The translations under genes were made by a program, and so were the position numbers. A stretch of 51,734 nt of DNA, the filler included, from Jimgerdemannia flammicorona (lineage: Eukaryota): the NCBI GenBank assembly GCA_003990765.1. It is 2 parts of 2 records of this genome, joined end to end, with 100 filler letters (N's around TTAATTAATTAA, not from the genome) between each part and the next. Parts side by side here need not be neighbours in the genome. Positions count along the whole stretch, not along the records: positions 25,918 to 51,734 come from RBNJ01000787.1; 1 more part is not named here. One strand, written 5' to 3'. Numbering within the stretch: position 1 is the first letter of the stretch; the number at the start of each line of letters is the position of its first letter. The notes beneath the pieces were generated by a model. The model was not told the DNA's origin. It did not search any database and saw only the letters and a list, made by a program, of their open reading frames with translations. Shown piece after piece: positions 2,418 through 51,734 of the stretch.

Positions 2418-2905
2418 CCCCCTCCCCCAGACCTCAGAATCTCAGACTTGAACAGACTCGAACACACAAGAACATTCCTGAATACTTCCCCACAATACCT
2501 TTTACACAAATACTCCTAGTATAGCAATATCATGAATAGCAAATAAACCTATTCCATAACCCACAAACCACTCTTAAGTAAATCTGCTCTCTGTTAGGAC
2601 CTACTCCTAACCCTGTCACGAAATTTCCTAATTGGGTATTGTCTGCAGCAATATGGCAATTCAACTAAGCTGGTCTTAGTCTCTTAAACTTCCTGAAATA
2701 TGGAAAATCCTGAACATCTAGAACTAGTCCAAAAAAGGACTTTGGTTGAGATGTCAACCCAATCTTGAAATCAATAAGCGTAGAGGACATACTCCATACG
2801 AAATTGATCTTGACCATAAGAAATCGGTCTTCCAGAACATCTAGAATATCTAGAAAACCTTTTCAGAACTACATAACGGTCACCCTAAAAAGTAACCCTC
2901 TTACA

Positions 2906-25817: not shown

Positions 25818-25917
25818 NNNNNNNNNNNNNNNNNNNNNNNNNNNNNNNNNNNNNNNNNNNNTTAATTAATTAANNNNNNNNNNNNNNNNNNNNNNNNNNN
25901 NNNNNNNNNNNNNNNNN
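25818..25917. other. Assembly gap with artificial six-frame stop linker
   Basis: N-run, TTAATTAATTAA (25862-25873), N-run; 100 bp in total. Confidence 0.97.
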
Positions 25918-28960: not shown

Positions 28961-29075
28961 GCTACTTTCTGAGAAAATGGACCTTACCAGACTTTTGACC
29001 TCCCAAATGGTGTAACAACACTAGAACAAATTAAAAGGCCCCGACGAGGACGTCAAAAGCTAAGAAGGGGAGAGT

Positions 29076-31136: not shown

Positions 31137-31264
31137 GTAGCAGAGAAAGAAGCTGGAAGCTATACATATATATATTTATACATATGCTATATCAACATCA
31201 ACTTTAACAGATCAGTTATAAGTATTTTCTAATACTGGTGATACTTTAAGTTAGACTTATTTTT

Positions 31265-33230
31265 TAAATAATATTTTATGCTATACTTCTCATTCTGAAG
31301 TTTGGTAATACTGTACCAAAACTAGGAAAAATAAAGTTACTTATAAGTATTACAGGTAATTTTTATTTTATTTTATTTAAAAAATAAAACTTATAATTGC
31401 ATTGAATATATTTATAGTTTATTTGATATAAATATAAAAATTTTAAAATATAGGCAGAAATATAAAATATACAATAGTTCTATAATAAAAATGATAAAGT
31501 ATAAAAGGCCCAACATTTGGATAAAATGAAGTTAAATATAATATCAAGTAAAATTGATATTCTGGCTATAGTAAGTAGGTGATCTCTTTTTTATATTTTA
31601 GTATAAATTTGAAAATATATCTTTTATCTTAAAAAAAAAAAACTCCCAAATTTGGCTATATTCTATCTTAGAGTTTTAAAATTGACTTATTTATTGGATT
31701 ATATATAATGATCAACCATTTATAGCAATTGAGAGTACTTCTTTATAAAGTCTATTTGGTCTTCTCAAGCCTGATTTATACACTCCAAGTACTGATACTA
31801 TTCATAATGATATTATGAAGACTTATATAAAAGAATATAATAATCTCTATTAAAAACTTCAGATAAAATATTAGTAATATTAAGAATGTTATTGAATTAA
31901 TTATAGTTACTAACTATATTTTAAATTTTAATATAGAGTATTATAGATAAAATTTCATTATAATTGATGTCTGAATATCTCTAGACATCATTTCATTTCT
32001 CAGTGTTACCAAACATTTGATTGCTTCCAATTAATAGCTTCAAACTCTTACTCTCGACTTTGTAAAACTTGAGAGTCCTCACTCTGGAAAAAATATTACA
32101 GAAGTATTTATAAACTATATTCATAAGCTTGGAATTATAACTAAGATATGAGAGTTTTTTATTTTTAATTATTAACTACTTTTTATATAATTTTATATAT
32201 CAAAATTATGAAATACAGATATTGGCCATTACAATAGATAATATCTCTAATAATATCACATTTCTCTACATTTTGATAACAAAACTTCAATAAGAAAATG
32301 TAATATTTGATCTTAATAACAACTATATATAGTGTCAAGCCTATGTTCTGAATCTTGCTGCTCAAGATTATCTCATACAACTATTTAGTAACTAGAGTGA
32401 AATTAGCAAAAACTCTAATACCATTTCAAAGTTATGCAAATTGATTGTTATAATTCAATCATCACTACTACAGTGAAAAAACTTATTTTAGATATCAGTA
32501 TACATTGAAATTTAACATTTACAATAATTGAATGAACTCTAATACTTGCTATAGTATATAGGTTATTAATGATAATATTTGAGAATAGGATTTAAATTAT
32601 TAATTAATTTTAACTTATTCAAATATATATAATTTAGACACTAGATTCTATAGCTACTATTGATAAAGATATGTAAGATATGATAATTAAAGAGAATGAG
32701 AGTGCAAAATTGGGAGACATTATTATAGTTTTAGAGGTAAGTAAAAAGGTATTTATTAGTATTTTTGCAGATTTAGTTTTACTTTACTTATCATTTTTTA
32801 TACTTTTACTCTTATTTTTCCTTTAGAATTTCAATAAATATATAAAATGAAGTTGTTTGGCAAAAGTTTCCAATGATATATTTTGCAATTTCAGTATATA
32901 CTGTTTTGATTAATTAACTTGAACACCTACTAGACTTATTAGAAAATGAAGATATATCTTTCTTAAGGCTAAAGGAAGCTATTGAAGCAGCTTTGAAGAA
33001 GTTTAAAAAATATTATTCAAAAACAGATACTTCCATATTTTCTATCAGTACCAGTAAGTAAAGTGTTGTTTTTTATAAATTAAAAGAGAAATTTCGTTAT
33101 TTTGATTTTAATTCTAATTTTTGACCAGTTTTAGATCTATAACTAAAGCTGTAATATCTTAAAGATCAAGGCAGGGAAAAAGAATTTATTGAGGTGGTAG
33201 AGCAATTAATTATTAATATATATTGGAAAA
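31265..33230 (+). pseudogene. hAT-superfamily transposase remnant with introns
   Basis: BED-like SEVW..KVT(Y/C)KY(Y/C); SFLSVTKH..LQTLTLDFVKLESPHSGKNI; ILAITIDNISNN (cf. ITTDNASN); CQAYVLNLAAQ (cf. CxxH..LNL); KKYYSKTD..VLD. GT-AG introns at 32737-32826 and 33054-33128. Confidence 0.85.
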
Positions 33231-33244
33231 GAGTTAGAGTTAGG
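33231..33244 (+). repeat. Decayed telomeric-repeat junction (GAGTTAGAGTTAGG)
   Basis: G>A-mutated GGGTTAGGGTTAGG directly before the CTTCAAG terminus of T1. Confidence 0.75.
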
Positions 33245-36200
33245 CTTCAAGTAAGAATTTATTCATTGTAGAGAAGATAAGATATATCAGAGCAACAAAC
33301 AGCAAAGACTCCTAAGATGAGAAAAGCAAAAAAAGGCCAGTGAAGTAAACAATTAGCTAAGAAGTACAAACAAAGACCAGAGAGGTGACCACCCTATAGA
33401 CAGGCTGGATAAAACCATTTTATCATGGCTGTAGAGATAATAAATGCAAAAAAGCAAAGAAGAGAGAAACTAAATAAGATACACAAATGCCCAGTGCCAA
33501 CTATAGGAACATATCAACATCCAAACACCAAGTGACTAATATGAGATAAATAACTCAAAGTACTCTCAACAATGAGAGAACCAACTAAGGTGAAGGAGAA
33601 GAAAGAAAGAAATAAAAAAAATGTGCAATTACTCGATCACCCAAGTATCTTCATAATCTCAGTTAGGCAGAACCCAACTGCAAGGTGGCCACCAGAATTA
33701 TACATAGCATCAATAGCATGGTAGGCTTTCTTGTGAAGAGCATATAGAGGGTAGGCATAAAGTTCTTCCTGCTATTCATTACTGATAAACCAATTGAGTT
33801 ATTCATCATAATCAGAATTATCTTGGAAAGTGGAATAGGAACCATTGAGAAGACCGCACCTGAGGAGATGTTCACAATGAAACTTATCTCTACAGGGGCA
33901 GGGGCGGGGTTGGCCAAAGTAGCCATAATACCAGGTAAGTGCAGAGCACACAAATCAGAGGAGGAAGAAGAGGATATGATCAGTGCCCTGTGACCACAAG
34001 TGGCCTTTGGGAGTAATATACTGAATAAGCACCTGGGAGGAGAAAGTCAATTCCTGCAACAGCTGGTTTCAGAGGAATAACTGGAGGAAGGAGTAGAGCA
34101 AGTGGGTCTTGCAGACCTAGAGATGAAGGTCTTAGTACCAGTCAAGGAAGTTAAGACAAGAGGTCCAATGCCAGAACTTATCAATGATAGAACCCAGGGG
34201 ATATGTGACAAAGTGCTCAGTGAGAGAGCTGATGGGGTTGTTGCCAGACTTGCTACACTAATCCAGATGGGCTTAGAATATATAGCAGAGGTCCAACATG
34301 TGACGAAGGAAGGAGGGGAGGCCAAGAATTGAACTGCCAAGCAAGAGATGGCCAGAAAATCTGACTGCCCAAGCAACAGCATCATCAAAGACCTGCTCAG
34401 GATGCTTAAATACCTGAAGCTCCATAGTAGTAACTGGGCAGGAAGCTTGTAGAAGAAGAAGGCCATACTCTAGCTGAGGCCTAATGAATGTCCATATAAT
34501 GGCCGACTTGACCATTGGCGACCAGAGAGGACTGCAGACATGGCAGAACCCAAGAGTTTGTTCTATCTTTACTGCATTCTATAACACAAGGCTGACAAAG
34601 TCAAACCCTTTATTAATATACAACATACCTAGGTATATGTAAGAGTAGGGTTACAGGCAGAGCTTGTCTCCAATCTGCACAGTACAATTGGCTGGGTCAA
34701 TACAACTGCACTTCTTGGGATTGAGTTCCATACTGTTTGCCAAAAGCCAGTCCTCACAAAAGCCAATCATCCTTTGCCCCTTGCAGCAGTGCAGGGGGTG
34801 AGAGCAATATCATCAGCATAGAAGAGCCTGAGGGGGAAGTCATACTCCTTGAACTGCTCATCAAAGGAGATGGTGAGGAGGTCAATGAAGACATCAAAGA
34901 GCCAGAGGGAGAAGAGAGAGCCTTGGAAGAGACCACGCTCAGTGGGGACCAATGGGGTGATGAGGCCATTAACAACTACCTGATAAGAACAGTGATTGAA
35001 GAGGCTACAAATAATACTAAGGAGGGCTACATCAGCTCCTCATACCTCAAGTTGAGAAAGAATGAGCTTGAGGGGGACTCTATCATATACCTGCCAGAGG
35101 TCAAGAAAGACACGGTAGCCCCACTCCTTGGCCCATGTCTTGTGCAAAAGCAAGATATAGGAGAGGGATGAGAAGTAGGTTCAGAAGCCACCTTGGCAGT
35201 ATGATATTTCTGTCAGGCCACTTCGGCTCTTGATGTATCCTTCCAAACACTACTCAAAGAGTCTACAAAACATTTCAGTAAGAGCAATAGTGCGAAAACC
35301 ATCAATTGTACAAGATTACTCCTTCTTGGGAACTAGGGTAATAATGGCAGTATTCTAGTAGCGAGGAGTGAGCCCTCAGACCATGCACATCGGGAAGAAG
35401 AATGACAAGACTTTGGAGAGGTCACAGGGAGTATTCTTTTTGCCCGCCATCACCTAAAGGATCTGAACATACAAAGAGTCAGCCCCACAGGTCTTCGAAA
35501 GAAGGTAGCTGTAGATAGCTCTCCAAACTATAGGCTGGTCAAACCAAGCCTGTAGCCCAAGAGCATTCACACTAAAGGAGAAGACATCCTTGGAGTCATC
35601 AAGGTGGAGGGAGGCATTTGGTTGGCCAAAGATAGTGGTAAAATGTACAACCACATCATCAAACACCAAGACAGCAGGGGAGTGAGATTGAAGGGGTGCA
35701 GAGGGTGTGGAGTAGTATGCTTGCTTAAAACTATAAATGGCATCAGAGACCATAGATATACTGTGAAGAAGGTCCCACCAGGGGAGTAGCACTGCTCTGA
35801 TTTCTATTGCATCATATGAGCCAAGAATATTCTCACAAACTGACAATAGACCAGAGGTCAAAAGAGCATCGAGAGAATCCACAAACTGCTGGCAATCTTC
35901 CACAGAGTGAAAGCCAGAGATGTGGTCTCGAATAAAGTAGATAGACCTGACAACAGTATTGTAAATGATATCTGCTAATTCTCGAAGATGGGCTTGGATA
36001 ACCAGATTGGTCAGATATCTCACAGAGTAATAACAGATGTCAGTCAAGGCAGCAACTGGTAAGGGAGAGAAGGAGAAGAAGACAGTGAGGAGGGAGGGGT
36101 GGTCAGTAGTGATAAGAGGGGTGGAGCAGATAAGGGATGCGTAGAGGGATGTGGTGGTGAATGCATAATCAATGTGTATCCAGCCACCAGGGTCAGATGG

Positions 36201-37891
36201 TTCAATGACCATGTCATCAAGGAGATGTTGATGACATCAATCTGATCTCTAGGACTAGAGTTGACATCACCAAGACAGGCACCGAAGTGGGTGTTGATGT
36301 TACCGATTAGGAGGGTCTTTCCCAGGAAGAGACCAGACTCAATATCACAGAAGCTACCAATAGGAAGAGAGAGGGGGGCATAAACTCCAACCAAAGCCAA
36401 GCCCTGGAACATAAGCTGGATATAGAAGGGATCGGTGGAGGACTTGGAAATAAGGGGGGCAAAATGGTTTAACACAAAGACCATGGGACCACTATTCTGG
36501 TGACTTATGATCCTATATAATGCTGGAGGAGAGGACATGTAAATGAGCAGAGAGGGATATAGCAGAATGTGCCATATTTCACATATATAAAGAATGTCGA
36601 GGGCAGGACCAATCAACTGACTGAGCATATTGAACTTGTCCTAGGGTAGTCTGTGTGCATTCTGGAACCCAACTCTCATTGTGGGCTAGGTGTGTTAGCA
36701 CCAACAGCATGGGAAGTATCTGAGGAGGAAGCTTTGGCTTCCAGATCCATTGCCATCTCACCAGTCATGGCTACAATACCACCTGCCTTTGAAGCAGGGC
36801 CAGCCGACAGGGAGGTGAAGGAGGGGAGAGTTAGGCCAAGTTCCACAGCCCAAGCTCAGTAGAAGGTCTGCATCTCAGGCCTCTTTGCAGTGGCATCACC
36901 AGCCAACTGTCAGACCCGAGCATAGAAAGATCAGAGTACGTGTCTTCACAGCCTCTATTGTGTTCTTGTTGTGGGGGAGTGCAGGGTCTCAGATTGAGAG
37001 CATTGAGAACCTGAGCATCTTCATCTTCTTTTGGAATGCCATGATATAATCAGGGTAGAGATGGAATTCTATGGTTGACACCGAGATGTATGACATGTTG
37101 AGAACTTTTAAAAACATTATATAGATATCATACAAGTTCTTTCAGATCTGCCTGATCTTAAGATGGGCAAATCTGTCAATGTAAACATGCTATAGCTGAG
37201 CACCTCTCTCAGTCAGTGACAAATGAGAGGTTGGCTTGCAGATAATGTGAGAAAGGGCAGCAGTAGCAGCTGCCCTTTCTGTCTTGGGGTAGGCCTGGGT
37301 CCTATCCTTGATAGAGACCTTCTTTTCAGTGGTGACATATGATTTGGGGGGGGCAGGAGTTGAAGCAGGGGATGGAGATGGACTAGCAGTACTGGGTTCT
37401 ACAGGTATAGCCTGGGGTAATGGCCCAAGGGCCTTGGCCTTGCCCTTTTTAGAGAGTACAGCTTTAGTAGCTGGAGGTACTGATGTGAGAGTTGCCTCCT
37501 TTAGTGGCACACTAGACTGTGATGAGGCAGCTTTAGCAGCCTGCTTATCCACTCGCTTCTGGGCCTTCAACCATATGTTTACAGCAGGACCAGTAAGAGG
37601 GGGGGCCAAGGACTTAGTGGGGGTAGATGTGGAAGAGGCAGTGGGGGTACCTCCAGAAGGAGCACCAGATGATGAGGGGGTGGTGGGTGCAGACTGCACA
37701 GCAAGCTGTGCCATCAGCTGGGCATTGATCTTGACCAGTTTGGCCACTTGAGTTGGCAGATCCAATCTCCGCTTCCTCATCACAGCTATCTCCATGACCA
37801 GATCAGAGTTGGCTGAGGGGCCTGCATGACTGGTAGTCAGGGTCATATACATACTAGTGTTTAGGTGACCATGTTTGTTCTAATTGAGGAA
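33245..37891 (-). mobile_element. Telomere-repeat-joined APE LINE, copy T1 (5' truncated in ORF1)
   Basis: VGVYAP, GNINT, IDYAF, TDH (APE); QGSLFSLWLFDVFID, FYADD (RT); CPC..H..C C-terminus. Confidence 0.9.
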
Positions 37892-37902
37892 TTAGGGTTA
37901 GG
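37892..37902 (+). repeat. Telomeric-repeat junction TTAGGGTTAGG (T1/T2)
   Basis: Seen directly; followed by CTTCAAG. Confidence 0.88.
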
Positions 37903-40207
37903 CTTCAAGTAAGGGTTTTATTCATTATAGAGAAGATAAGATACATCAGAACAACAAATAGCAAAGACTCCTAAGATGAGAAAAGCAAAACAAGGCCAGT
38001 GAAGTAGACACCTAGCTAAGAAGTACAAAATAAAGGCCAGAGAGGTGATCACCCTATAGATGGGCTGGATAAAACCATTTTGTCAGGGCCATCAAGATAA
38101 TAAATGTGAAAAAGCAAAGAAGAGAGAAACTAAAATAAAATATACAAATACTCAGTACTAACTATAGGAAGAATATCGATACCCAAACACCAAGAAACTA
38201 ATATGAGATAAATAACTCAATACACTCTCAACAATAAGAGAACCAACTGAGGTGAATAAGAGAAAAGAAGAAAATAAAGAAAATGTATAATCACTCAATT
38301 ACCCAAGCATCTTCATAATCTCAGTCAGGTAGAACCTGACCACAAGGTGGCCACCAGAATTATACATAGCATCAATAGCATAGTAGGCTGTCTCGTAAAG
38401 AGTTTGAAGAGGGTAGGCATAAAGTTCTCCTGCCATTTGTCATTGGTAAACCAATCAAGCTGTTCAGCATGATCAGGAACATCTCAGAAAGCAGAGTATG
38501 AACTATTGAGAAGACCGCACCTGAGTAGATGACCATGATGAAACTTATCTCCATAGAGGCAAGGGCAGAGTTGGCCAAAATAGCCATAATGCTAGGTAAG
38601 CGCAGAATGTACAAGTCAGGGGGGGAAGGAAAGGATATGGTCAGTACCTCTTGACTGTATGCGGCCTTTGGGGGTAATGTACCAAATGAGAACCTGGAAG
38701 AAAGAGGCCCATTCCTGGAGCAGCTGATTCTGAAGGAATGACTGAAGGAAGAAGCAGAGTAAGTGAGTCTTGCCAACCTAGAGACAAAGGTTCCAGTACC
38801 AGTAGAGGAAGTCAAGCCAAGAGGTCCAATACAAAACTTGTCAATAATAGAACCCAGGGGATACATGACAAAGCGCTCGCTAAGGAGACTGATGGGGTTA
38901 TTGTCAACTTGCTATACTAATCCAGGTGGGCTTAAAACATGCAGCAGAGGTCCGACATACAATAATGGAAGGAAGAGAGGCTGAGAATTGAACTGCCAAG
39001 CAGGAGATAGCTAGAAAATCTAACCACTCAAGCAACAGTATCATCAAAGATCTGCTCAGGATACTTCATCACCTGAAGCCCTGTAGTGGTTGCTAGGCAG
39101 GAGACTCATCGAAGGGAGAGGCCATACTCCAGCTAAGGACTGATGAAAGTACATATAATGGCCAGCTTGACCATTGGTGATCAGAGAGGACTACAAGCAT
39201 GGTAGAACCCAAGAGTACATTCTGCTTTTGCTACATTCTGCAATACAAGATCAACAAAGTCGAACCCTTTGTTAGTGTATAGTATACCTAGGTATACAAA
39301 GGAGGAGGGTTGTGGGTAGGGCTCACCACCAATCTGCACAGTACAGTCAGTAGGGCCAATATAACTGCACTTCTTGGGGTTGAGTTCTATGTCATTTACT
39401 AAGAGCTAATCCTCACAGTAGTCAATCATCCTCTGCCCTTCTACAGTAGTATAGGGAGTGAGAGTGTTATTGTCTGTGAAGAAGAGCCTGAGGGGGAAGT
39501 CATACTCCTTAAACTGTTCATCAAAGGAGATAGCAAGGGGATTGATAAAGACATCAAAGAGCTAGGGGGAGAGAAGAGAGCCCTGAAAAAGACTGTGCTC
39601 AGTAGGGACCAAAGGAGTGATGAGGCCATTAACAACTACTTAGTAAGAACAGTAAGTCATAAAAGAATGAGCCTGAGGGGGACTCTGTCATAAGCCTGCC
39701 AGGACATGGCAGCTCTATCTCTTAGCCCAAGTCTCATGTGAAAGCAAGATATGGGAAAGAGATGAGAAGTGGGTTCAGAAGTCACCTTGGCAGTGCAACA
39801 TTTCTGTCAGGCTACTTCAGCTCTTGACGTAACCTTCCAAATACTACTCGAAGAGTCTATGAAATATTTCGGTAAGAGCAATAGGACGAAATCTATTAAT
39901 TGTTTGTGATTCCTCCTTCTTAGGAACTAGAGTAATGATGATGGAGTTCCAGTAGCAGGAAGTGAGCCCACAAACCATACATATCTAGAAGAAAAAGAAC
40001 AGGGCTTTGGATAGGCTACAGGGGGTATCCTTTTTGCCTGCTATCACCTGAAGGACCCAGACATATAAGGAGTCAGCTCTACAGGCCTTTGAGAGAAGGT
40101 AGCTATGGATAGCTCTCCAAACTGTAGGTTGATCAAACTATGACTGCAGTCCAAGAGCTCACACACTGAGGGGGAAGACAGGCCTGGGGGCCTTGGCTTT
40201 GCTCTTT
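37903..40207 (-). mobile_element. Telomere-repeat-joined APE LINE, copy T2 (internally deleted, 5' truncated)
   Basis: Colinear with T1 33245-35587, then ~30 bp matching the ORF1 KKGKAK region. Confidence 0.88.
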
Positions 40208-40226
40208 TTAGGGTTAGGGTTAGGGT
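40208..40226 (+). repeat. (TTAGGG)3 junction between T2 and the Penelope-like element
   Basis: TTAGGGTTAGGGTTAGGGT seen directly. Confidence 0.93.
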
Positions 40227-40526
40227 GAAGATTGTGAGGTTTAAGCAAAGATTTATGAAAGAAATCAACAGAGTCGAGCAATAGCTATGTTAGATCATAG
40301 AAATCTTTGAACATCTCTTGTCAGACTTGCTATTGCTTAAATACCTTTCACTTGTCCGCTTTGGACTTAGTAATTGATTATTGTTTACACAATGTAATAC
40401 GAAATTAATTATGAATGAGAGTGAATTACTTCTCAGATTTCACAATCAGGTAGCTTTGATCCACTGATCAAATCACATTTTTCTTTTAAGATTAGGGTCG
40501 GGCATGTGCTACCGATTAGAATAAAA
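40217..40526 (-). repeat. PLE 3' direct repeat (pLTR)
   Basis: Aligns by eye with 43437-43791; the latter has an extra AT-rich insert. Confidence 0.9.
40277..40337 (-). ncRNA. Hammerhead ribozyme, mutated copy
   Basis: Core reads CTGACAA..CAAA; stem I AGCAATAGC/GCTATTGCT is intact. Confidence 0.6.
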
Positions 40527-40590
40527 CACACATTGTACAGTACAGGAAAAGGAAAGATACAGTGTGACATTTTATGACCAGTCATGTTTA

Positions 40591-42340
40591 TTATAGGGGT
40601 GATTTGCCTGCTATTGATAGCATCTTCTTGTTCTGCTTCTCAATTAGCTTCTTTAAGTTGAGACCATGATAAATAACTGGGCTGTACTTTACAAGACAGT
40701 GTTGAGACAGAGTATTCATCACTCTGGCAGCCAAAGATAGTGCACAATGATGGTAATAATTACCAGAATAATTGTGCATATGGTGTAACATTTATCTTAC
40801 CGAGCTTAGGGCCAGACTCTTCATTATTCGCACGAGAATCCTCCGAAAGCATATGGGAGCAGTCTTGATAAGATTCAAAACTCAAAAGATAAGCGATCTG
40901 ATTTGGTTTGAAGGTACATTGTACCAAAAACTGACAGAATTCAGAAATTGCTACTTCATAATTGTCATACTCTGATGAGTTCTGAATAAGGCAAGTATTC
41001 TCACCTCTAAGCCATCCATCAATATATGCTTGTGGATAATACATATCTGGCATAGAGTAAATATGAAGATTTATATCTTTATCATAGTTTCGGAACTGAA
41101 TTGACCGAGTCTTATCAGCTTTGAGCTTCACATATACTTTAAGATTGCAAAATATAACTTTGTCAGCTATATGTTGTGTGAAGTACAAACTAGAGCTCAT
41201 TGTTATAACATGTTTTGCAGCTTCATCGCCCTTATCCATAATGATAATGATGTCATCGATGAATCAGAAGTAAAGTTCCGGTAGAATCCCTTGATCATCA
41301 AGCCTTAGTTCATAAAAAGCCATAAAGAGATTTGCTACATTGGGTGCCAAAGGCATGCCCATTGCAATTCCTTGAATCTGTTGATAGATATGTCTGACGT
41401 ATTGAACAAATGCAAACTTAATCACAAAGTGCAATATCTTTATTTAATATCTGTAGATATGTTCTTTAGAGTAATCAAATCACATAAGAACTACAAATAT
41501 TTTCCATAGACACTCATCGATGTTAATGTTGGTATATATTGACTCAATGTCCGCTGCTAGTAATGTTACAGATCCAGAAAAAAACTTTCCTTCAACATGA
41601 TTAATTACATATTTGGAGTCGGAAGCTACCATTCGACACATAGAGATATATGGTTTCCAATAGGCATCTACAGCTCTCAAAGCATCGCTGGTAATCCAGC
41701 AGTGGTTCAGAGAGATAGGTCTTGACTTAACAGGATTTTTATAAAGTTTCGGTAAAATATAGAATTCTGGAATCTTACATTTCACAAGGGAAGCTTGCCA
41801 TGACTTCACCTGTTTGAGGGCCGAATGCGAGACATTTTTGTCAAGCTTTTTGGCTTCATCAATCAATAACATGAGAGATGTATTCGTCTCAGTAGAATTG
41901 AAAGATTTCTCAACAAACATTGACATGTCAGTGAGGTGACCCAACACTTGTGAGTTGTACCAGTCATAATCCATAAGTGTAAGACCAAGTCCTTTATCAG
42001 TTTTACAAACAATAAGGCAATTATTTCGCATAAAGTCATGTAGATGTTTGATGGTATGCAAGTAGCAGTTATGAGGATTTATTTTATTTGCTTTGCCAAA
42101 ATGGCGTACAAAATTACTCTCCACAACATGAAGACCAAAATCAGCTCGAGTAGTTAAGCCTTTGTCCCAGCCTTATTCTTTTGCCCCCACAAGGACTTCT
42201 TGACAGACAGATCACCAGCTTTGGCAGGCCTGTTCAATATCAAGACAAGTGTGAAAATTGAAGTTAAGATCTTTGTTTAACAGATCAATAATGTCACTTG
42301 GAATTTTGGAGATATGAGAAATATTATTCACAAAAACATT
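40591..42340 (-). pseudogene. Penelope-like reverse transcriptase
   Basis: VNNIS..LLNKDLNF, KTDKGLG, FYILPKLYK..RPI, DSKYVI, ADIESIYTNI, QIQGIAMG.PLAPNVANLFM, YF*FIDD, YDKDINLHIY..GWLRGE thumb region. Confidence 0.92.
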
Positions 42341-43336
42341 CTTATTGGAAATGTTATGGAAATGTACTGTTTCCCATCTTTTGAACCAGACTTCTCTGAT
42401 CCTCCTTTGCCTTTGGTCATAGTGTTTTTTGTCTTCTTCGGCAAGCCCTTTTTCAGGATCAGCTTCTTGTATAGCACAGCTGTTGCCGATACTTTTGATT
42501 TGGCCTTCCCCTTCACAGGGCCCATTACCTTTGGCTTATTCATCAGCTTTGCATTTTCCTTTATCTAAAGACAAGGGAACATGAGTATCAAGCCAGATAG
42601 AAAGTAATTTGATTGGCTTGAAAGCCTCATCAATGGGGACATACAGTGTAGTCACTCTTACTTTTTTCTCTGGGGCCAAAACAGCCTCAACATACATGTT
42701 GTGCAATTTGTTAGCAAATTCGCTAACAGTATACTCTAGGTATACTTTGGCAAGCTGATCATGCCTATCGTCCTCATGGAATACCAATAGCTTAGGTTCT
42801 AATTCTCCCCAAAGAGAGGTGACCAGGCTATTGAGTTCAGAGTCACACTCCTTCTAAACTTGTTATTTAGATGTAATGATAGCCACCTTAACTTCTAAGG
42901 CGATAACGTCATAGATATGCTTAATGGATCCCTTGGGAAGAGAGACATTTTTAACCAAGAAGTCATAATATTTTCCAGGGTCTTTCTTCTCTGCTGCCAC
43001 TGCAAGGTGAACTGCTTTCTTACAGCAATCAATCAAGATTACTGCCCATGCTGCATAGTGTTTGACATAGTCGACCAGGGGCAGTTCTTTTATCAGAACT
43101 GTGGAGGAGCCTTGACCACCAAAGGTTGGAGGGATGGGGACCACAAATGGGGTACTCTTGGGTGGTAGTCTATGAAATTCCTCATGAACCGCAGTATGAA
43201 CCATGGCTATTTCCTCAGCATACATCTCAGCATCTTCAACAATATCGTCGAGAGAAGCAAACTGAAGTACCAATTGGGCCACACAAGATAGACCTTCTGG
43301 CATATCAGAATTGATGCTAGGAGCATAAGACCTCAT
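42341..43336 (-). pseudogene. PLE upstream coding region (ORF1-like), unknown function
   Basis: The 212-aa and 83-aa ORFs share a frame broken by point stops; probable start MRSYAPS at 43336. Confidence 0.6.
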
Positions 43337-43436
43337 TGCTTGCTGTTGAGCAAGCAGGGTGGAGGTGAGGTCAGAGTGAGAGTTATTATCATTCGATATA
43401 TCATAAAGATAAGTTTTTTTATAAAAAGGTAATGAG

Positions 43437-43791
43437 GGGTTAGGGTGAAGATTGTGAGGTTTAAGCAAAGATTTGTGCAAGAAATTGACAGAGTCGAGCA
43501 ATAGCCATGTTAGATCACAGAAATCTTTCGAACATCTCTCATCAGACTTGCTATTACTTAAATATCTTTCACTTGTCTACTTCAGACTTAGTAATTAGTT
43601 ACTGTTTACACAATGTAATACAAAATTAATCATGAATAAGAGTGAATTACTTCTTGGGTTTCACAATTGGGTAGCTTTGATCTACTAATTAAATCATATT
43701 AAAATAAAATTTTAATTAAATTATAATTATATTACTGAGCAATTTTTCTTTTAAGATTAGAGTCAGGTGCATGCTACCGATTGGAATAAAA
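43437..43791 (-). repeat. PLE 5' direct repeat (pLTR)
   Basis: Direct repeat of 40217-40526 beginning GGGTTAGGGTGAAGATTGTGAGG. Confidence 0.9.
43497..43558 (-). ncRNA. Type I hammerhead ribozyme
   Basis: Minus strand: AATAGCAAGT CTGATGA GAGATGTTC GAAA GAT TTCTGTG ATC TA ACATGGCTATT. Intact core, short stem II, stem III, CUA cleavage triplet, stem I. Confidence 0.8.
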
Positions 43792-43830
43792 TTGTAATTG
43801 TATTACTGAGCAAATTTTCTTTTAAGATGA

Positions 43831-43850
43831 GGGTTAGGGTTAGGGTTAGG
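43831..43850 (+). repeat. Telomeric-repeat junction GGG(TTAGGG)2TTAGG (PLE/T3)
   Basis: Seen directly; followed by CTTCAAG. Confidence 0.93.
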
Positions 43851-44243
43851 CTTCAAGTAAGAATTTATTCATTGTAGAGAAGATAAGATACATCAGAGCA
43901 ACAAATGGCAAAGACTCCTAAGATAAGAAAAGCAAAACAAGGCCAGTGAAATAAATAACTAGCTAAGAAGTACAAAACAAAGGTCAGAGAGGTGACCACC
44001 CTGTGGACAGGCTGGATAAATCATTTTGTCATAGCCATAAAGATAATAAATGCGGAAAGCAAAGAAAAGAAATACTGAGATAAAATATGCATTCACCTGG
44101 TGCTAACTACAGAAACCATATTGATACCTGAACTCTAAATGACTAACGTGAGATGAATAACTCAATGCACTCTCAACAACAGGGGAATCAACCAAGGCGA
44201 ATGAGGGGAAGGAAAGATATAAAGAAAATGTGTGATCACTCAA

Positions 44244-47200
44244 TCACCCAAGCATCTTCGTAATCTCGGTCAGGCAAAACCTGACCACAAGGTGGCTACC
44301 AGAATTATACATAGCATCAATAGCATAGTAGGCTGTCTCGTAAAGAGTGTGAAGAGGGTAGGCACAAAGCTCTTTCTACCATTCATCACTAGTAAACCAA
44401 TCAAGTTATGCATCACAAACAGAAGTACCTCAGAATGCAGAATATGAACCGTCGAGAAGACCACATCTGAGAAGATGGCCACAATGAAACTTATCTCCAC
44501 AGGGATAGGAGTGGGGTTGACTAAAGTAGCCATAGTGCCAGGCAAGTGCAGAGTGCACAAGCTGGGGGAGAAAGGAGAGGACACGATTGGTACTCTGTGA
44601 CTACAAGTGGCCTTTGGGGGTAATGTACCAAATGAGAGCCTGAGAGGAGGAGGCCTATTTCTGCAATAGCGGATCCCAGAGAAATGACTGAAGGAAGGAG
44701 CAGAGTGGGTGAGTCATGCATTCTTGGGGACAAAGGTCCCAGTACAAGTCAAGGAAGTCAAGCCAAGAGGTCCAACACTGGAACTTGTCAATGATAGAAC
44801 CCAGGAGACACATAACAAAGTGCTCGCTAAGGGGGCTGATGGGGTTGTTGCCAGACTTGCTACACTAATCTAGATGGGCTTGTAACATGCAGCAGAGGTC
44901 CAACATATAGTGGAGAAAGGAGGAGAGGCCAAGAATCAAACTGCCAAGCAAGGGTTGGCTGGAAAATCCAACTGCTCAGGCGACAGTGTCATCAAAGACC
45001 TGCTTGGGACACTTCAACACCTGAAGCCCTATAGTAGTAGCTGGGCAGGAGGCTCATAGAAGGGGAAGACCATATTCCAGCTGTGGCCTAATAAATGTCC
45101 ATACAATACCCAGCTTGACCATTGGTGACCAGAGGGGTCCATGTGCATGGCAGAACCCAAGAGTTCATTCTGCCTTTGCCACATTCTGCAATGTGAGGCT
45201 GACAAAGTCAAACCCTTTATTGGTGTATGGCACTCCCAGGTATACATAAGAGGGGGCTCGCAGGCAGGGCTCACCCCCAATTTGTACAGTACAGTCAGCT
45301 GGGCCGATATAACCCTTCTTGGGGTTGAGTTCCATACCATTTACCAGAAGTCAGTCCTCGCAGAAGTCAATTATCCTCTGCCCCTCCGTGGTAGTGTGGG
45401 GGGTGAGGGTGATATTATCAGCAAAGAAGTGCCTGAGGGGGAAGTTATACTCCTTGAATTGTTCATCAAAGAAGGTAGCAAGGGGATCAATAAAGACATT
45501 AAAGTGCCAGGGGGAGAGAAGGGAGCCTTGGAAGAGGCCACACTCAGTGGGGACCGAAGGGATAACAAGAGCATTAACAATCACCTAATAGGAATAGTGA
45601 TTGAACAGGCTTCAAATAATGCTAAGGAGGGCTGCATCAGCTCCTCATGCCTCAAGTCGAGAAAGAATGAGCTTGAGGGGGACTTGGTCATATGCCTGCC
45701 AGAGGCCAAGAAAGACACAGTGGCCCTACCCCTTGGCTCATACATATCTCATGCAAGAGCAAGACATAGGAGAGAGATGAGAAGCAAGTTCGGAAGCCAT
45801 CTTGGTAGTGAGATATTTTAGTCAAGCTACTTTAGCTCTTGACATAACCTTCCAAACAACATTTGAAGAGTCTATGAAACATTTCGGTGAGAGTGATAGG
45901 GCAAAAACCATTGATGGTCTGGGATTCCTCCTTCTTAGGAACTGGGGTAATGATAGCAGAGTTCAGCAGCATGGGGTGAGCCCCCAAACCATGCATATCT
46001 GGAAGAAGAATGACAAGGCCTTCGAAAGGCTGCAAGGGGCATCCTTCTCACCTGCCATCACCTGAAGGATCCTGATGTACAAGGAGTCAACTTCACAGGT
46101 CTTAGAGAGGGGATAGATGTGGATGACCCTCCTAACTACAGGTTGGTCAAACCAACACTATAGCCCAAGAGCCCCCATGCTGAGAGAGAAGACATCCTCA
46201 GAGTCATCAAGGCGGAGGGAGGTATCAGGCTGGCCGAAGATAGTGGTGAAATGATCAACCACATTGTCAAACACCAAAACAGCAGGGGAGTGAGACTGGA
46301 GAGGAGCAGGAGGGGTGGAGTGGTATGCACACTTGAAACCACAGATAGCATCAGAGACCAAGGATACACTGCGAAGAAGGCCCTGCCATGGGAGCAGCAC
46401 TGCCCTGATCTCTTGTGTGTCATACAAGCCAAGAATATCCTCACAAACTGACTATAGACCAGAGGTCAAAAGAGCATTGAGAGAATCCACAAACTGCTGG
46501 CGATCCTCCACAGAGTGGAAGCCAGAGATGTGATTTTGAATAGAATAGATAGACCTGACAATGGTATCGCAAATGATATCTGCTGATTTCCAAAGGTGGG
46601 CTTGAATGACCAGATCGGTCAGGTATTTTGCAGAGTAATGGCGGATACTAGCCAGGGCAGCAACTGGCAAGGAGGAGAAGGGGAAGGAGATGGTGAGGAG
46701 GGAGGTGTGGTCAGTTGTGACAGGGGGAGTGGTACATGTGAGGGATGTATGGAGGGATGGAGTGGCAAATACATGATCAACATACATAGAACCAGCCACC
46801 GGGGTGAGGTGGTTCAATGATCATATCATCAGGGAGTTGTCGACGACATCTATCTGATCCTGAGGACCAGAGTTGATATCACCTAAGTGGTCACTGAAGT
46901 GAGTATTGATATCACTGATCAAAAGAACCTTACCTGGGAAAAGGCCAGATACAAGATCACGGAAACCACCAATGGGAAGAGAGGGAGAGGCATAAACCCC
47001 AATCAAAGCCAGGCCCTGGAACATGAGCTGGATATAGAAGGGGTCAGCGGAGGACCCAGAAATGAGGGGCGCGAAACAGTTTGACACAAGGACCATGAGA
47101 CCACCATTCTGGTGACCCATGATCCTGTGCAATACTGGAGGAGAGGACATGTGAATGAGCAGAGAGGGATGCAGTAGTATGTGCTACATTTCACATATGA

Positions 47201-47291
47201 AAAGAATGTCGAGGGTAGGACCAATCAACTGACTGAGTATATCAAACTTGTCCTGGAGTAGTCTGTGTGCATTGAGGAACCTGACTCTCAT
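44244..47291 (-). pseudogene. T3 ORF2: APE endonuclease, RT, C-terminal Cys/His motif (~1016 codons)
   Basis: MRVxFLNAHxL..DILFICE, GVYA, DIN, VDH, TDH; PVPKK..PITL, QGSLLSP, FFADN (FYADD in T1), YLG. Stop position conserved in all four copies. Confidence 0.9.
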
Positions 47292-48787
47292 TAGGGGCTG
47301 GGCATGTTAGTACCAATAGTGTGGGAAGCACCTGAGGAGGAAGCTTCGGCTTCCAAATCCATTACCATCTCACCAGTCATGGCCACAGTACCACCTGCCT
47401 TTGAAGCAGGGCCGGCCGATGGAGAGATGGAGGAGGGGAGAGTGAGGCCAAGTTCTGCGGCCCATGTCCTGTAGAAGGTCTATACCTCAGGCCTTCTTGC
47501 AGTAGCATCACCAGCCAACTGCTGGACCTGAGCATGGAATGATTGGAGTACTCATGTCTTCACGGCCTCTGTAGCATTCTTGTTGCATGGGAGAGTAGGG
47601 TCCCAGGCCAACAGCACTGAGAACCCAAGCACCTTCATCTTCTTTTGGAATGCTGTAACATAATCAGAGCAGAGAAGGAATTCGATGATTGATGCCGAGA
47701 CATACAACATTTTGAGAATCTTTGACAATATTACATGGATATCATAGAGGTTCTTCCGGATCTGCTTGATCTTAAGATGAGCAAATCCATCGATATAAAC
47801 ATACTGCAGCTGAGCGCCCTTCTCAGTCAGCAACAAATGAGAGGTCGGCTTGTGGGTCATGTGTGAAAGGGTGGCAGTGGCGGCTGCCCTTTCTGTCTCG
47901 GGGTAGACCTGAGTCCTATCCTTGATAGAAACCTTCTTGGTGGCAGTGGCATATGATTTGGGGGGGGTGGGGGTCAAAGCAGGGGATGAAGACAGACTGG
48001 CGGCACTGGGTCCCACAGGTGTAACCTGGGGCACTGGCTTGGAAACCTTGGCCTTACCCTTTTTAGGTGGCATGGCTTTGGTGGCCAGAGACATGGCCAT
48101 GGGAGTTACCACCTTTGGTAGTGCACCAGACTGTGATGCAGCAGCTTTAGCAGCCTGCTTGTCTGCTCGCTTCTGCACCTTCGACCACGTATTCATAGCA
48201 GGGCCAGTAGGAGGGGTGGCCGAGGACTTGAGAGGAGCAGATATAGAAGGGGTGGTGGGGGTACTTCCTGTAGGAGCACCAGATGATGAGGGGGAGGTGG
48301 GCACAGATTGTGCAGCAAGCTGTACCATCAGCTGGGTATTGATTTTGGCCAGATCAGCCACTTGAGTCAGCAGATCTGAGATCTGCTTCCTCATCACAGC
48401 CATCTCTGAGACCAAATCGGGGTCAGCTGAGGGGCCCACATGACCAGCTGTTGGGGTCATTCCCAAACTAGTGTTCGGACAACCACACTTGTTTCGGTTG
48501 AGGGGCAGAGGTATGGGAGAGAAGGACAGGCATTGGGCATCATAGTTTGAATCAGAAGAGATCATGATCTCTTTGTCATCTTCTGTATCGCGCAAGGAAG
48601 ATAAATATACCAATATCAGTCATGCATCCCTGCACAACCTGCACATTGCCATAAGACTACCCTCACTGAAGCTGAGGGAGAAGAGACTGATGCTGCAACA
48701 TTCAGCGCAGTGGAGTGATGCACCAAAGTGCGTGAAGAGATAGGTGGCATTGCCGTCATCACCAATGACAGTGGAGGTGGCTGACAT
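47288..48787 (-). pseudogene. T3 ORF1 (~500 codons): CxxC-x19-CxxC, coiled coil, P/S/T/A/K-rich linker, conserved C-terminal domain
   Basis: The 81-aa and 353-aa ORFs and their continuation lie in one frame broken by point stops; homologous to T1 37190-37852. Confidence 0.75.
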
Positions 48788-48889
48788 TGCTGAAATAGGT
48801 GAAGGTGTATTTGTTTGTATTTGTGAAATTGTGAAATGTGGCTCACATGACCTTTGTTTGTGCAATGAAAAAATAATGGAGAAGGGGGG

Positions 48890-48897
48890 TATTTATA
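48890..48897 (-). promoter_or_regulatory. TATA box upstream of T3 ORF1
   Basis: Minus strand GGTATAAATACCCCCC ~100 bp before the ORF1 ATG. Confidence 0.5.
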
Positions 48898-49000
48898 CCT
48901 GATGAGAGGCTTAGCTAATCAAAGTGACTGCTTTCTTGATTTGGAATAGCTTCAGGCCATAAAGCCAAGTCTAGCCAAATGGAAAAATCATATGAGTGGC

Positions 49001-49010
49001 TTGGGTTAGG
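49001..49010 (+). repeat. Telomeric-like junction TTGGGTTAGG (T3/T4)
   Basis: Directly before the CTTCAAG terminus of T4. Confidence 0.8.
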
Positions 49011-50597
49011 CTTCAAGAAAGAATTTATTCATTGTAGAGAAGATAAGATTCATTGGAGCAGGGAATGGCAAAGACTTCTAAGATGAGAAAAGCAAAACAA
49101 GACCAGCAAAGTAAACAACTAGCTAAGAAGAACAAAACAAAGGCCAGAGAGGTAACCACCCTATGGATGGGCTGGATATAACCATTTAATCATGGCCATA
49201 AAGATAATGATGCAAAAGCAAAGAAAGAAGAGCTAAATAAAAATACATGTTCACTCGGTGCCAACGACATGAACTGTATCATCAACTAAACACCAAATGG
49301 CTGACATGAGATGAATAACTCAATATGCTCTCAACAACAAGGGAACCAACTAAGGCGAATGAGGGAAAAGAAGGAAGTAAAGAAAATGTGTGATTACTCG
49401 ATCACCCAAGTATCTTCATAATCTTGGTCAGGCAGAACCCGACCACGAGGTGGCCACCAGAATTACACATGGTGTCGATAACATGATAGGCTATCTCGTA
49501 AAGAGCGTGAAGAGGATAGGCATAAAGTTCCTCCTGCCATTCGTTACTGGTAAACTAATTAAGTTATTCATCTTGATTGGAAGTACCTTAGAATATAGAA
49601 TATGAACCATCGAGAAGACCACACCTGAGGAGATGGCCATAATGAAACTTATCTCCACAGAGGCAGGGGTAGGGTTGGCCAAAGTAGCTATAATGTCAGG
49701 TGAGGGCAGAATGCACAAGCTGGGGGGGGGAAGGAGAGGACGCAGTCGGCTCCCTGCAACCGCAAGCGGCCTTTGGGGGTGATATACCAAATAAGAGCCT
49801 GGGAAGAGGAGGCCCATTCCTGCAGCAGCTGATCTCGAAGGAAGGACTGAAGGAAGGAGTGGAGCAGGTGAGTCTTGCAGACCTGGGGATGAAGGTCCCA
49901 GTACTAGTCAAGAAAGTCAAGCCAGGAGGTCCAATGCCAGAACTTGTCAATAATAGAACCTAGAGGACATGTGACAAAGCGCTTGCTAAGGGAGCTAATG
50001 GGGTTGTTGCCGGACTTACTACACCAATCCAGATTGGCTTGGAATATGCAGCAGAGGTCAGATATACAACAGAGGAAGGAAGGGAGGCTGAGAATCGCAC
50101 TACCAAGTAAGGGATGGCTGGAAAATCTGAGCACCCAAGCAACAGCATCATCAAAGACCTGCTTGGAGTGCTTTAATACCTGAAGCCCCATGGTGCTCAC
50201 TGGGCAGGATGATCATAGAAGGGGAAGGCCATACTGCAGCTGAGGTCTGATGAATGTTCCTACAATGGCCAACTTGACCATTGGCAACCAGAGGGGACTA
50301 CAGGCACAGCAGAATTCAAGAGTATGGTCTGCCTTTGCCGCATTCTGCAATACAAGGCTGACAAAGTCAAACCCTTTGTTGGTATATGGCACACCCAGGT
50401 ATACATAGAAGGGGGGTCGCAAGCAAAGTTCACCCCCAATCTGCACAGTATAGTCAGCAGGGCCAACATAACTGCACTTCTTGGAGTTGAGCTCTATACC
50501 ATTCGCCAGAAGCCAATCTTCACAAAAGTCAATCATCCTCTACCCTTCTACTGCAGTGCGGGGGGTGAGGGTGATATTGTCAGTGAAGAAGAGCCTG
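49011..50597 (-). mobile_element. Telomere-repeat-joined APE LINE, copy T4 (ends within RT)
   Basis: Colinear with T3 43851-45435; similarity stops just before the FxDD region. Confidence 0.9.
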
Positions 50598-51734
50598 CAG
50601 CTCCTTTCTCCACTATCTTATCAGTCACAAGGTTTGGTAGGTGATCTTCCAAGTCCCCTTTCCCCTAATATTACCCTCTCTACCTCAGGTTAGTTTGCTG
50701 TGCCTGCAGGAGCATGGTGGGAGGAGGGCAATGGTGATGAGTTGCCCCTTTATCAGTGTCAGATCGGTACTTCCTCCATTTTTTCACGGATTCTATTGCC
50801 TTCGGCTGCATCTGAGGTATACCCGTTTTGGTGTGGTGCCTTCTTCCTTTTGCCATCGCCAACAAGGAGTTTTCTCGGTGTGTCTCGGGCTATGTAGGGA
50901 GTCGGCCAACCTTGGGCATTAAGTGCTCAGTGTAGGTTATCTGCAGGTCCTCGGTATCTGTTGTTGGGCCCTCTGGCTTTGGCGAGCTTCCTGGCGAGCA
51001 TGGTTCTGGTATAGGTAACTGCTTTTCAGGTGTTGTCAAGATGGGAGGGGAGATGGCCATCACAGATAGGTGGAAGGGCGATTACGGTGAACCAGTAGGG
51101 TGCCAGGCTGGGGGCGGTCATCGGGGCTGGGGCAGGCGCTGCTTCGGTGGGGCCTTTTGATTGGTGCAGCATGGTTAGATGGTAGGTGTCACTATCGGCT
51201 TCTTTTGGTGGTCAGCAGGGTTGGGCCCCAGTCATCAGGTGGGGTCAGGAGGCCTGAGGCTACCCATTTCAGGCGTCTTGGCTGCACTAAACTGGAACTG
51301 AGAGCTGACATGGCAACGTGATCGAGGCCCACAGGCTAGAGTAGTGGGGTATTGGGGGTTTCCTCCCACCTCATGTGTAAGTCCTTTACTCACCTCAACT
51401 GGGAGAACTAGGCCCTACCCACCATGTTGTACTTTGATGAGCATTTTTTATTTGCCTGTCATTCTCTTTGGTGTGACAGGGGCTATTCTATTTGGCTTGG
51501 GTGTGGCCTTGTACATAGGTTGGGTTCTCAGGCATGTGCTTTCGGTCGTTGGTGTATGGTTGGGTTTCCCCTGGTGGTAGGGAGAGCATGGTGCACAGAA
51601 TGAGGTGCAGGCTTATCAGCCCTGCTGCATCTAGCATGGTTGAGCTGCTGGACAATAGCTAGCCTAGGTTAATGGGGGGGCAGTGCTTGGTGGGTGGTGG
51701 GGGAGGGTTTTGGCCTATATAGTCTAGGTTCCCT
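50598..51734. other. Unclassified GC-richer segment, possibly another mobile element
   Basis: Abrupt junction with T4. Decayed minus-strand frame MLARKLAKARGPNNRYRG.. with stops explicable as CGA/CAA>TGA/TAA; no recognised domain. Confidence 0.35.

Follow-up and report, generated by a model that had tools for sequence, protein, structure and literature searches.

A chain of LINE and Penelope-like retroelements joined through short TTAGGG tracts in Jimgerdemannia flammicorona: a probable fossil of telomere-repeat targeting

The genome of Jimgerdemannia flammicorona (assembly GCA_003990765.1) contains a one-way chain of six retroelements in which every element 3' end adjoins a short tract of the telomere-like repeat TTAGGG. 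We analysed this chain, which spans positions 33231-50597, within a stretch of 51,734 nucleotides (the window; two joined records, with positions 25918 to 51734 derived from RBNJ01000787.1). All six elements lie on the minus strand; four of them are copies of a long interspersed nuclear element (LINE) that we refer to as T (T1 to T4), one is a Penelope-like element (PLE), and one is a 3' fragment of the PLE. We regard it as probable that the block is a fossil set of telomere-repeat-targeted retroelements, made up of four LINEs of a T clade that encodes an endonuclease of the apurinic/apyrimidinic type (APE), and of a copy and a fragment of an endonuclease-lacking (EN-minus) PLE. Throughout, "telomeric" denotes a match to TTAGGG, a unit that may not be the telomere repeat of the host itself.

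The chain was assembled from self-BLAST comparisons and from a direct reading of the junctions (Table 1). Plus-strand TTAGGG tracts of 8-20 nt adjoin the 3' ends of all six elements, whereas runs of A are absent from every junction of the chain. The sequence TTAGGGTTAG was matched five times, each time on the plus strand (37892, 40208/40214 and 43834/43840), against 0.11 matches expected, and none of 100 shuffles yielded five or more. For CCTAACCC we found ten matches (1.85 expected), eight of which are located on the minus strand within the chain (37895 to 49010); the remaining two, on the plus strand (2606 and 30837), fall into a repeat to the left of the chain that resembles the long terminal repeat (LTR) of a chromovirus. 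The phase of the junctions is constant, one form being common to the four T ends and another to the two PLE ends.

An earlier inspection of this DNA, made without database searches (the sequence-only reading), had described two unrelated classes of retroelements with a common polarity and variable 5' truncation, and on these points our analysis agrees with it. One class is a LINE with APE and reverse transcriptase (RT) regions, the other has an RT of the PLE type without a GIY-YIG endonuclease domain; the 3' end of each element lies beside the tract with the G-strand pointing to the right; and the 5' truncation points differ from copy to copy, leaving T1 to T4 with lengths of about 4.6, 2.3, 5.2, and 1.6 kb. 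The count of five elements has to be raised to six elements and six tracts, since the 385-bp PLE fragment and the tract at 43436 had been missed. Tracts of 10-20 bp had been claimed for each 3' end; they are indeed present at all of them, but measure 8-20 nt, and the first is imperfect at two positions. Likewise, the elements are arranged head-to-tail as reported, but not entirely without spacer DNA, since 27 nt of filler separate the 5' end of T2 from the next tract.

Table 1. Elements, TTAGGG tracts and flanking DNA of the retroelement chain, listed by position in the window.
Feature	Position	Strand	Basis
AT-rich left flank of the chain (29-34% GC)	31137-33230		composition; starts after the LTR-like repeat ending at 31136
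Degenerate G-strand tract at T1 3' end, 14 nt, 2 positions off a perfect repeat	33231-33244	+	direct reading
T1 LINE, 5'-truncated within ORF1, many stops	33245-37891	-	self-BLAST, 79.6% to T3 over 4.6 kb; RVT_1 4.3e-7; 5' end reaches next tract
G-strand tract, 11 nt, between T1 5' end and T2 3' end	37892-37902	+	motif match, reading
T2 LINE, 3' 2.3 kb only	37903-40180	-	self-BLAST; homology to T1/T3 ends at 40180
Filler, 27 nt, unrelated to T, from T2 5' end to next tract	40181-40207		side-by-side comparison with T1 and T3
G-strand tract, 18 nt, three perfect units	40208-40225	+	motif match, reading
PLE copy, 3.2 kb, few stops, PLE-type RT, no GIY-YIG found	40226-43435	-	RVT_1 1.4e-5 (below Pfam cut-off); homologs
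G-strand tract, 10 nt	43436-43445	+	motif match, reading
PLE 3' fragment, 385 bp, small internal duplication	43446-43830	-	264-bp match, 88.6% to 40217-40479; further pieces match 40477-40526
G-strand tract, 20 nt	43831-43850	+	motif match, reading
T3, longest LINE copy, 5.15 kb, ORF1 remnant and one-frame APE+RT ORF2, many stops	43851-49002	-	RVT_1 2.9e-12; ORF2 aligns with P0004-P0010
G-strand tract, 8 nt	49003-49010	+	motif match, reading
T4 LINE, 3' 1.6 kb only	49011-50597	-	~80% to T1, T2 and T3; all alignments end at 50597
G-rich right flank, unrelated to the chain	50598-51734		no tract at junction, no telomere array

The four T copies are 78-81% identical to one another in self-BLAST comparisons. 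None of the 14 stop-free open reading frame (ORF) pieces of the chain had a Pfam match, and the domains listed in Table 1 come from a Pfam scan in which each element was translated in full and stops were rendered as X. A word-based search of 5.8 billion proteins with ORF2 of T3 returned seven homologs, the metagenome proteins P0004-P0010, with 23-30% identity. When four of these seven proteins were scanned against Pfam, RVT_1 was detected in each, and Exo_endo_phos was above the cut-off in two and weak in the other two. In an alignment of the decayed T3 with all seven relatives, none of the eight rows deviates at the APE-type columns (N, E, D-N, D-H). Given the RVT_1 matches and these invariant columns, T is best described as a two-ORF LINE with a predicted N-terminal APE. 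Matches of T ORF2 in PDB were restricted to generic RT matches to R2 and L1, and a profile search with a T-family alignment yielded 10 proteins only, none of them pointing to a named LINE clade. At their 3' ends, the window copies of T carry C-strand units 13-14 nt after an AATAAA motif, and they have no poly(A).

Using a smaller alignment of the T family, we scanned metagenomes and recovered 79 loci. The five closest relatives of T among them (L001-L005) are intact LINEs on metagenome contigs, with both ORF1 and ORF2 intact in 5/5 and with 24-30% identity to T in ORF2; in the L004 element, ORF2 measures 1156 codons. A tract of at least two units is present in four of the 79 loci, and these four (L001, L003, L004, and L005) all belong to the five closest relatives; in each, the sense strand carries the tract, 105-148 bp downstream of the ORF2 match. 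No such tract was found at any of the 74 more distant LINE loci. Eight T-clade 3' ends could be read in L001-L005, and seven of them directly bear 9-21 nt of C-strand repeat, located 1-16 nt after AATAAA, while the 3' end of the L002 element itself has 4-5 nt of this repeat only. In total, 12 T-clade 3' ends were read in the window and in L001-L005, all without an A-run. Both L001 and L002 open with the 3' terminus of a preceding element and a 9-nt tract, the same head-to-tail stacking as in the window, and L001 additionally contains a 31-bp 3' fragment between two tracts, after which the 5' region of a further copy begins. The link to telomeric repeats proposed in the sequence-only reading is thus borne out by relatives of T from other sources, in which the C-strand 3' terminus and the head-to-tail stacking recur.

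A tree was computed from 42 ORF2 rows in a quick search without bootstraps, and a composition test flags many of these rows. It groups two T copies of the window with L001-L005 and P0004-P0010 in a single clade (14 rows; SH-aLRT support 98). Members bearing the tract are placed on both sides of the deepest splits of the T clade; 3' ends of a different kind are found in its sister group and in the remaining LINEs. The confinement of the tract to the closest relatives among the 79 loci marks it as a trait of a well-supported LINE clade, and one that is poorly sampled.

Several of the metagenome loci have further features of their own. From the tract onward, L003 and L004 have a common flank (96.8% identity over 3.4 kb), while their LINEs are only ~65% alike, and this in short RT stretches; the join to each LINE falls on the first unit of a 29-bp satellite in which a telomere-like motif is embedded. 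The shared flank (L003:4469-7846 and L004:8630-11934) comprises 7-8 copies of the satellite and then a long (TATATG)n array, and further in, L004 harbors a fragment of MutS domain V (14783-15319). A 5.8S rRNA (1676-1826) and a match to the initial ~640 model positions of the large-subunit rRNA (2747-3189) directly precede the intact LINE of L004, on the same strand. The ORF1 frame opens at 3218 (with the ORF called from 3245), 29-56 bp past the end of the rRNA match. A piece of rDNA is fused to the 5' end of this LINE, for which template switching onto pre-rRNA or the joining of an end to rDNA could account. In L001, a tandem repeat of ~215 bp (4845-5515) separates a tract from the start motif at the 5' end of the following LINE copy. 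It may be a variable repeat of the 5' untranslated region (UTR), as has been reported for other telomeric LINEs.

The second element of the chain was traced through its RT region. By eye, this region resembles the motifs of PLEs. A full HMMER search with it gave 6197 homologs at E<=0.001, the best of them at 7e-79 and 34% identity. A GIY-YIG domain was not found in the three sense frames of the window PLE at E<=1. We then scanned 30 homologs, namely the best 36 minus six shorter proteins (498-619 aa), and found GIY-YIG in none of the 30 at E<=0.01 and RVT_1 in 27. The sole word-based match, P0011, has RVT_1 together with a weak GIY-YIG. For one homolog, P0014, the nearest Atlas clusters are of the PLE type, derive from Rotifera and Basidiomycota, and contain PLE-linked Pfam families, an observation that serves as a lead only. 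Both PLE 3' ends (40226 and 43446) are adjoined by tracts, of 18 and 10 nt, respectively. By these features, the second element is best described as an endonuclease-lacking PLE of the Athena/Coprina kind. At 43701-43830, just before the 5' junction of the PLE fragment, there is a local duplication of ~40 bp that the long PLE copy does not have.

One mechanism, which we consider the most likely, would account for the anatomy of both kinds of elements. Each kind has a sense strand that terminates in one to three telomeric units in reverse complement; the C-strand 3' end of the RNA would pair with a TTAGGG 3'-OH and would be extended by the RT of the element. The new copy would thereby come to lie antisense along the G-strand, its 3' end being the proximal one, and such pairing would fix orientation and polarity alike. 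For the PLE, the 3'-OH would be that of an exposed G-overhang, as proposed for Athena/Coprina, while for T it would more likely be provided by a nick that its own endonuclease makes in a telomeric tract, in the manner of TRAS/SART, with the overhang as the alternative. If each insertion leaves a short tract on either side, later copies would take the orientation of the earlier ones, and a polar chain would build up at or near the chromosome end. The constant phase of the junctions within each family implies that the RNA carries at least the first unit or that priming occurs at a fixed position of the repeat, and the AATAAA just upstream suggests that transcripts terminate inside the tract or just after it.

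These proposals can be set against known systems. Athena/Coprina elements have, like the window PLE, a PLE-type RT without GIY-YIG and 3' reverse-complement telomeric repeats (PMC8557442; PMC13159263), and, like the chain as a whole, they are 5'-truncated with the 3' end proximal and with short telomeric tracts between copies. In the published model, EN-minus PLEs attach to G-overhangs via their reverse-complement telomeric repeats (PMC8557442; PMC13159263). For T, a close parallel by features is with TRAS1/SART1 of Bombyx (R1 clade), which also have two ORFs, an N-terminal APE followed by the RT, and a fixed orientation in telomeric repeats (PMC4700185; PMC7265360); the nearest proteins to T, at 23-30% identity, are metagenomic. 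The TRAS/SART endonuclease cuts the telomeric repeat, and the 3' UTR has been proposed to anneal to the target (PMC4700185). One fixed orientation beside telomeric repeats is likewise seen in 4/4 window T copies and at 7/8 3' ends in L001-L005. Unlike TRAS1/SART1, T lacks poly(A) and carries C-strand units straight after its 3' UTR, its unit is TTAGGG instead of TTAGG, and many of its copies are 5'-truncated.

Chains that mix the two classes of elements are already in print, and the combination of a PLE with an APE-type LINE is therefore not new: at telomere O.4 of Adineta vaga, head-to-tail EN-minus PLEs (Athena) occur with the APE LINE Hebe (PMC2861651). Hebe differs from T in belonging to the jockey clade, in having a poly(A) tail, and in being described as subtelomeric and not joined via telomeric repeats (PMC2861651); T, in contrast, has the telomeric complement at its own 3' end and is present in more copies than the PLE. 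Among fungi, MoTeR, FoTeR, and Cnl1 of the CRE clade form head-to-tail telomeric arrays with C-strand repeats at the 3' junction, as in the window (PMC12857005); the 3' junction has 3-7 units and the 5' junction a single one (PMC12857005). These elements have one ORF, with the RT followed by a restriction-enzyme-like endonuclease (PMC12857005), a type that, besides MoTeR, FoTeR, and Cnl1, also characterizes GilM/GilT among the telomere-linked CRE-clade LINEs (PMC10088271; PMC12857005). In contrast, ORF2 of T starts with the APE region and is preceded by ORF1; T was not searched for the restriction-enzyme-like motif. The Drosophila LINEs HeT-A, TART, and TAHRE are comparable in forming polar arrays where they build or invade chromosome ends (PMC10088271), but their arrays lack telomerase repeats and are joined via poly(A). 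Zepp and the APE-type Tx1-1_ACar have also been listed among the LINEs of chromosome ends (PMC10088271). A literature search confined to main texts, with few subscription journals and no Repbase Reports, turned up no LINE of the APE type whose 3' end consists of reverse-complement telomeric repeats and lacks poly(A).

The copies of T have decayed in a uniform manner. In the 1.59 kb of 3' sequence common to T1-T4, pairwise identity is 79-81% for all six pairs, with a transition-to-transversion ratio of ~5.5 and gaps in 9-10 columns, and the four copies carry 108, 97, 98, and 97 singleton changes, respectively. Hence, there is no age gradient along the chain, and the fall in divergence toward the chromosome end, for which the sequence-only reading had proposed to look, is not seen. 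The copies contain no invariant CpG (observed/expected ratios of 0.08-0.27) and almost no indels, and many sites have been altered independently in several copies, mainly by transitions at shared hot sites; the equal divergence of the copies is thus attributable to largely recurrent, deamination-type decay at the same positions. This pattern suggests that the host methylates the CpG sites of its repeats. We rejected classical CpA-type repeat-induced point mutation as the cause of the 80% plateau because the (CpA+TpG)/(ApC+GpT) index is 1.3-1.6 and the decay is centred on CpG. With all its ORFs broken, the block is now inactive, and the chain a dead relic.

The principal alternative to targeted insertion is pure end-healing, in which the chain would have grown only at a free chromosome end, with telomeric units added after erosion, the next RNA primed on the G-overhang, and the T endonuclease standing idle. 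The polarity, with the 3' end proximal and the G-strand outward, would be expected from such growth, as would the absence of poly(A) from both kinds of elements; the EN-minus PLE in the same chain requires a free 3'-OH (PMC8557442), and the first satellite unit is the joining point of two distinct T-clade LINEs, one in L003 and one in L004, as though it marked a telomere base. We nevertheless consider end-healing as the whole explanation unlikely. The retention of APE-type residues across the T clade and the intact ORF2 of the relatives speak for an endonuclease in use, the divergence of the copies shows no age gradient, and the right end of the chain has neither a tract nor a telomere. The sequence-only reading had envisaged a chromosome end growing by cycles of truncation, telomeric capping, and priming on the G-rich end; its polarity and its telomere link hold, but with APE residues retained in T and its seven relatives and no terminal array in the window, the growth cycle itself is one option among others. 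Since these residues are kept, nick-primed insertion of T into telomeric tracts, in the way of TRAS/SART, would be at least as likely as end-healing. Nick priming and end priming give rise to the same anatomy, and the window and the relatives of T do not separate them.

Two further explanations were weighed, and to both we assign a very low probability. In one, the tract is a simple-repeat tail encoded by the elements, as in many LINEs, and the block consists of ordinary dispersed repeats nested by chance. The constant phase of the junctions does indicate that at least part of the tract was carried by the RNA, and both the L002 end and the left flank of T1 border non-telomeric DNA. Chance nesting is, however, difficult to reconcile with six elements of two unrelated classes in one orientation, all with exact joins of 3' end to tract, when stacking occurs in L001 and L002 as well; moreover, the supposed tail is the commonest telomere unit of eukaryotes and common to T and an EN-minus PLE, the satellite flanking L003 and L004 is built on the same motif, and such junctions are absent from the other transposable elements of the window. 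Even less probable, in our estimate, is that segmental duplication or unequal recombination multiplied one or two insertions, or that collapsed repeats produced an assembly artefact. The similar divergence of the T pairs (79-81%) is what one early burst would give, but it is explained by the recurrent transitions described above. The 5' truncation point, the tract length, and the junction differ for each copy and therefore speak for separate insertions, and copies that are 20% apart are not prone to assembly collapse.

A number of observations weigh against targeted insertion into telomeric repeats, or against the class assignments on which this explanation depends. Pfam found no APE domain in the window's own T copies, so that the APE call on T rests on the alignment, with 2/4 scanned relatives passing the Exo_endo_phos cut-off. 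The RVT_1 match of the window PLE (1.4e-5) scores 25.3 bits, below the Pfam cut-off. Although a hammerhead ribozyme is usual for PLEs (PMC8557442), neither it nor any other Rfam family was found at E<=1 in 31000-51734; in this respect the window PLE differs from Athena/Coprina, but the copy is decayed and the ribozyme may have been lost. The window ends 1.1 kb past the chain and contains no terminal telomere array, and the 5' end of T4 (50597) meets unrelated G-rich DNA without a tract. The non-telomeric borders of the L002 3' end and of the T1 left flank also count here; hence, either insertion away from long arrays happens or the flanks were rearranged later. Finally, SART1Bm, a different element, needs at least three repeat units in an assay (PMC7265360), while the tracts described here measure 8-20 nt.

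Retroelements that target telomeres are central to ideas on the kinship of telomerase and retrotransposons and on the repair of chromosome ends when capping fails. Known types comprise endonuclease-bearing LINEs that cut telomeric repeats and possess poly(A), as opposed to PLEs without an endonuclease, which pair with the G-overhang. A LINE that keeps its endonuclease and yet ends like an EN-minus PLE, with both present in the same chains, would, if our interpretation is correct, represent a convergent pairing device. We advance a broader proposal tentatively and would not be surprised to see it fail: T may represent an undescribed, deep clade of endonuclease-bearing LINEs whose reverse-complement telomeric 3' end evolved independently of the EN-minus PLEs; in several eukaryotes yet to be sampled, the clade and Coprina/Athena-like PLEs would occupy chromosome ends together; its intact members (e.g., L004) would still add to or heal such ends, and it would bridge nick-primed and end-primed retrotransposition. 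The T clade offers a system in which to ask whether the endonuclease or the pairing of the 3' end sets the landing site, and its intact relatives make this question accessible at the bench. The value of the window chain thus lies not in an active telomere but in the lead that it provides to an apparently undescribed, still intact LINE clade.

The DNA on either side of the chain has a different character. No Pfam match was obtained in six frames of the left (31137-33230) and the right (50598-51734) flank, and BLASTN and TBLASTN revealed no similarity of the right flank to the rest of the window. Farther to the left, region 2913-25815 holds several repeat copies in both orientations, with ~65% mutual identity and with an extreme GC skew, in 2-kb windows, ranging from -0.50 to +0.49; the long ORFs of these repeats (up to 480 aa) have no Pfam match. 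Two runs of 44 N (25818-25861 and 25874-25917) represent the filler join of the stretch and lie just upstream of a Ty3-type chromovirus on the plus strand (25870-28650) that encodes an RT, RNase H, an integrase, and a chromodomain. A repeat of 2.1 kb with 89% identity between its two copies (813-2905 and 29023-31136) is probably the LTR or 3' region of this chromovirus.

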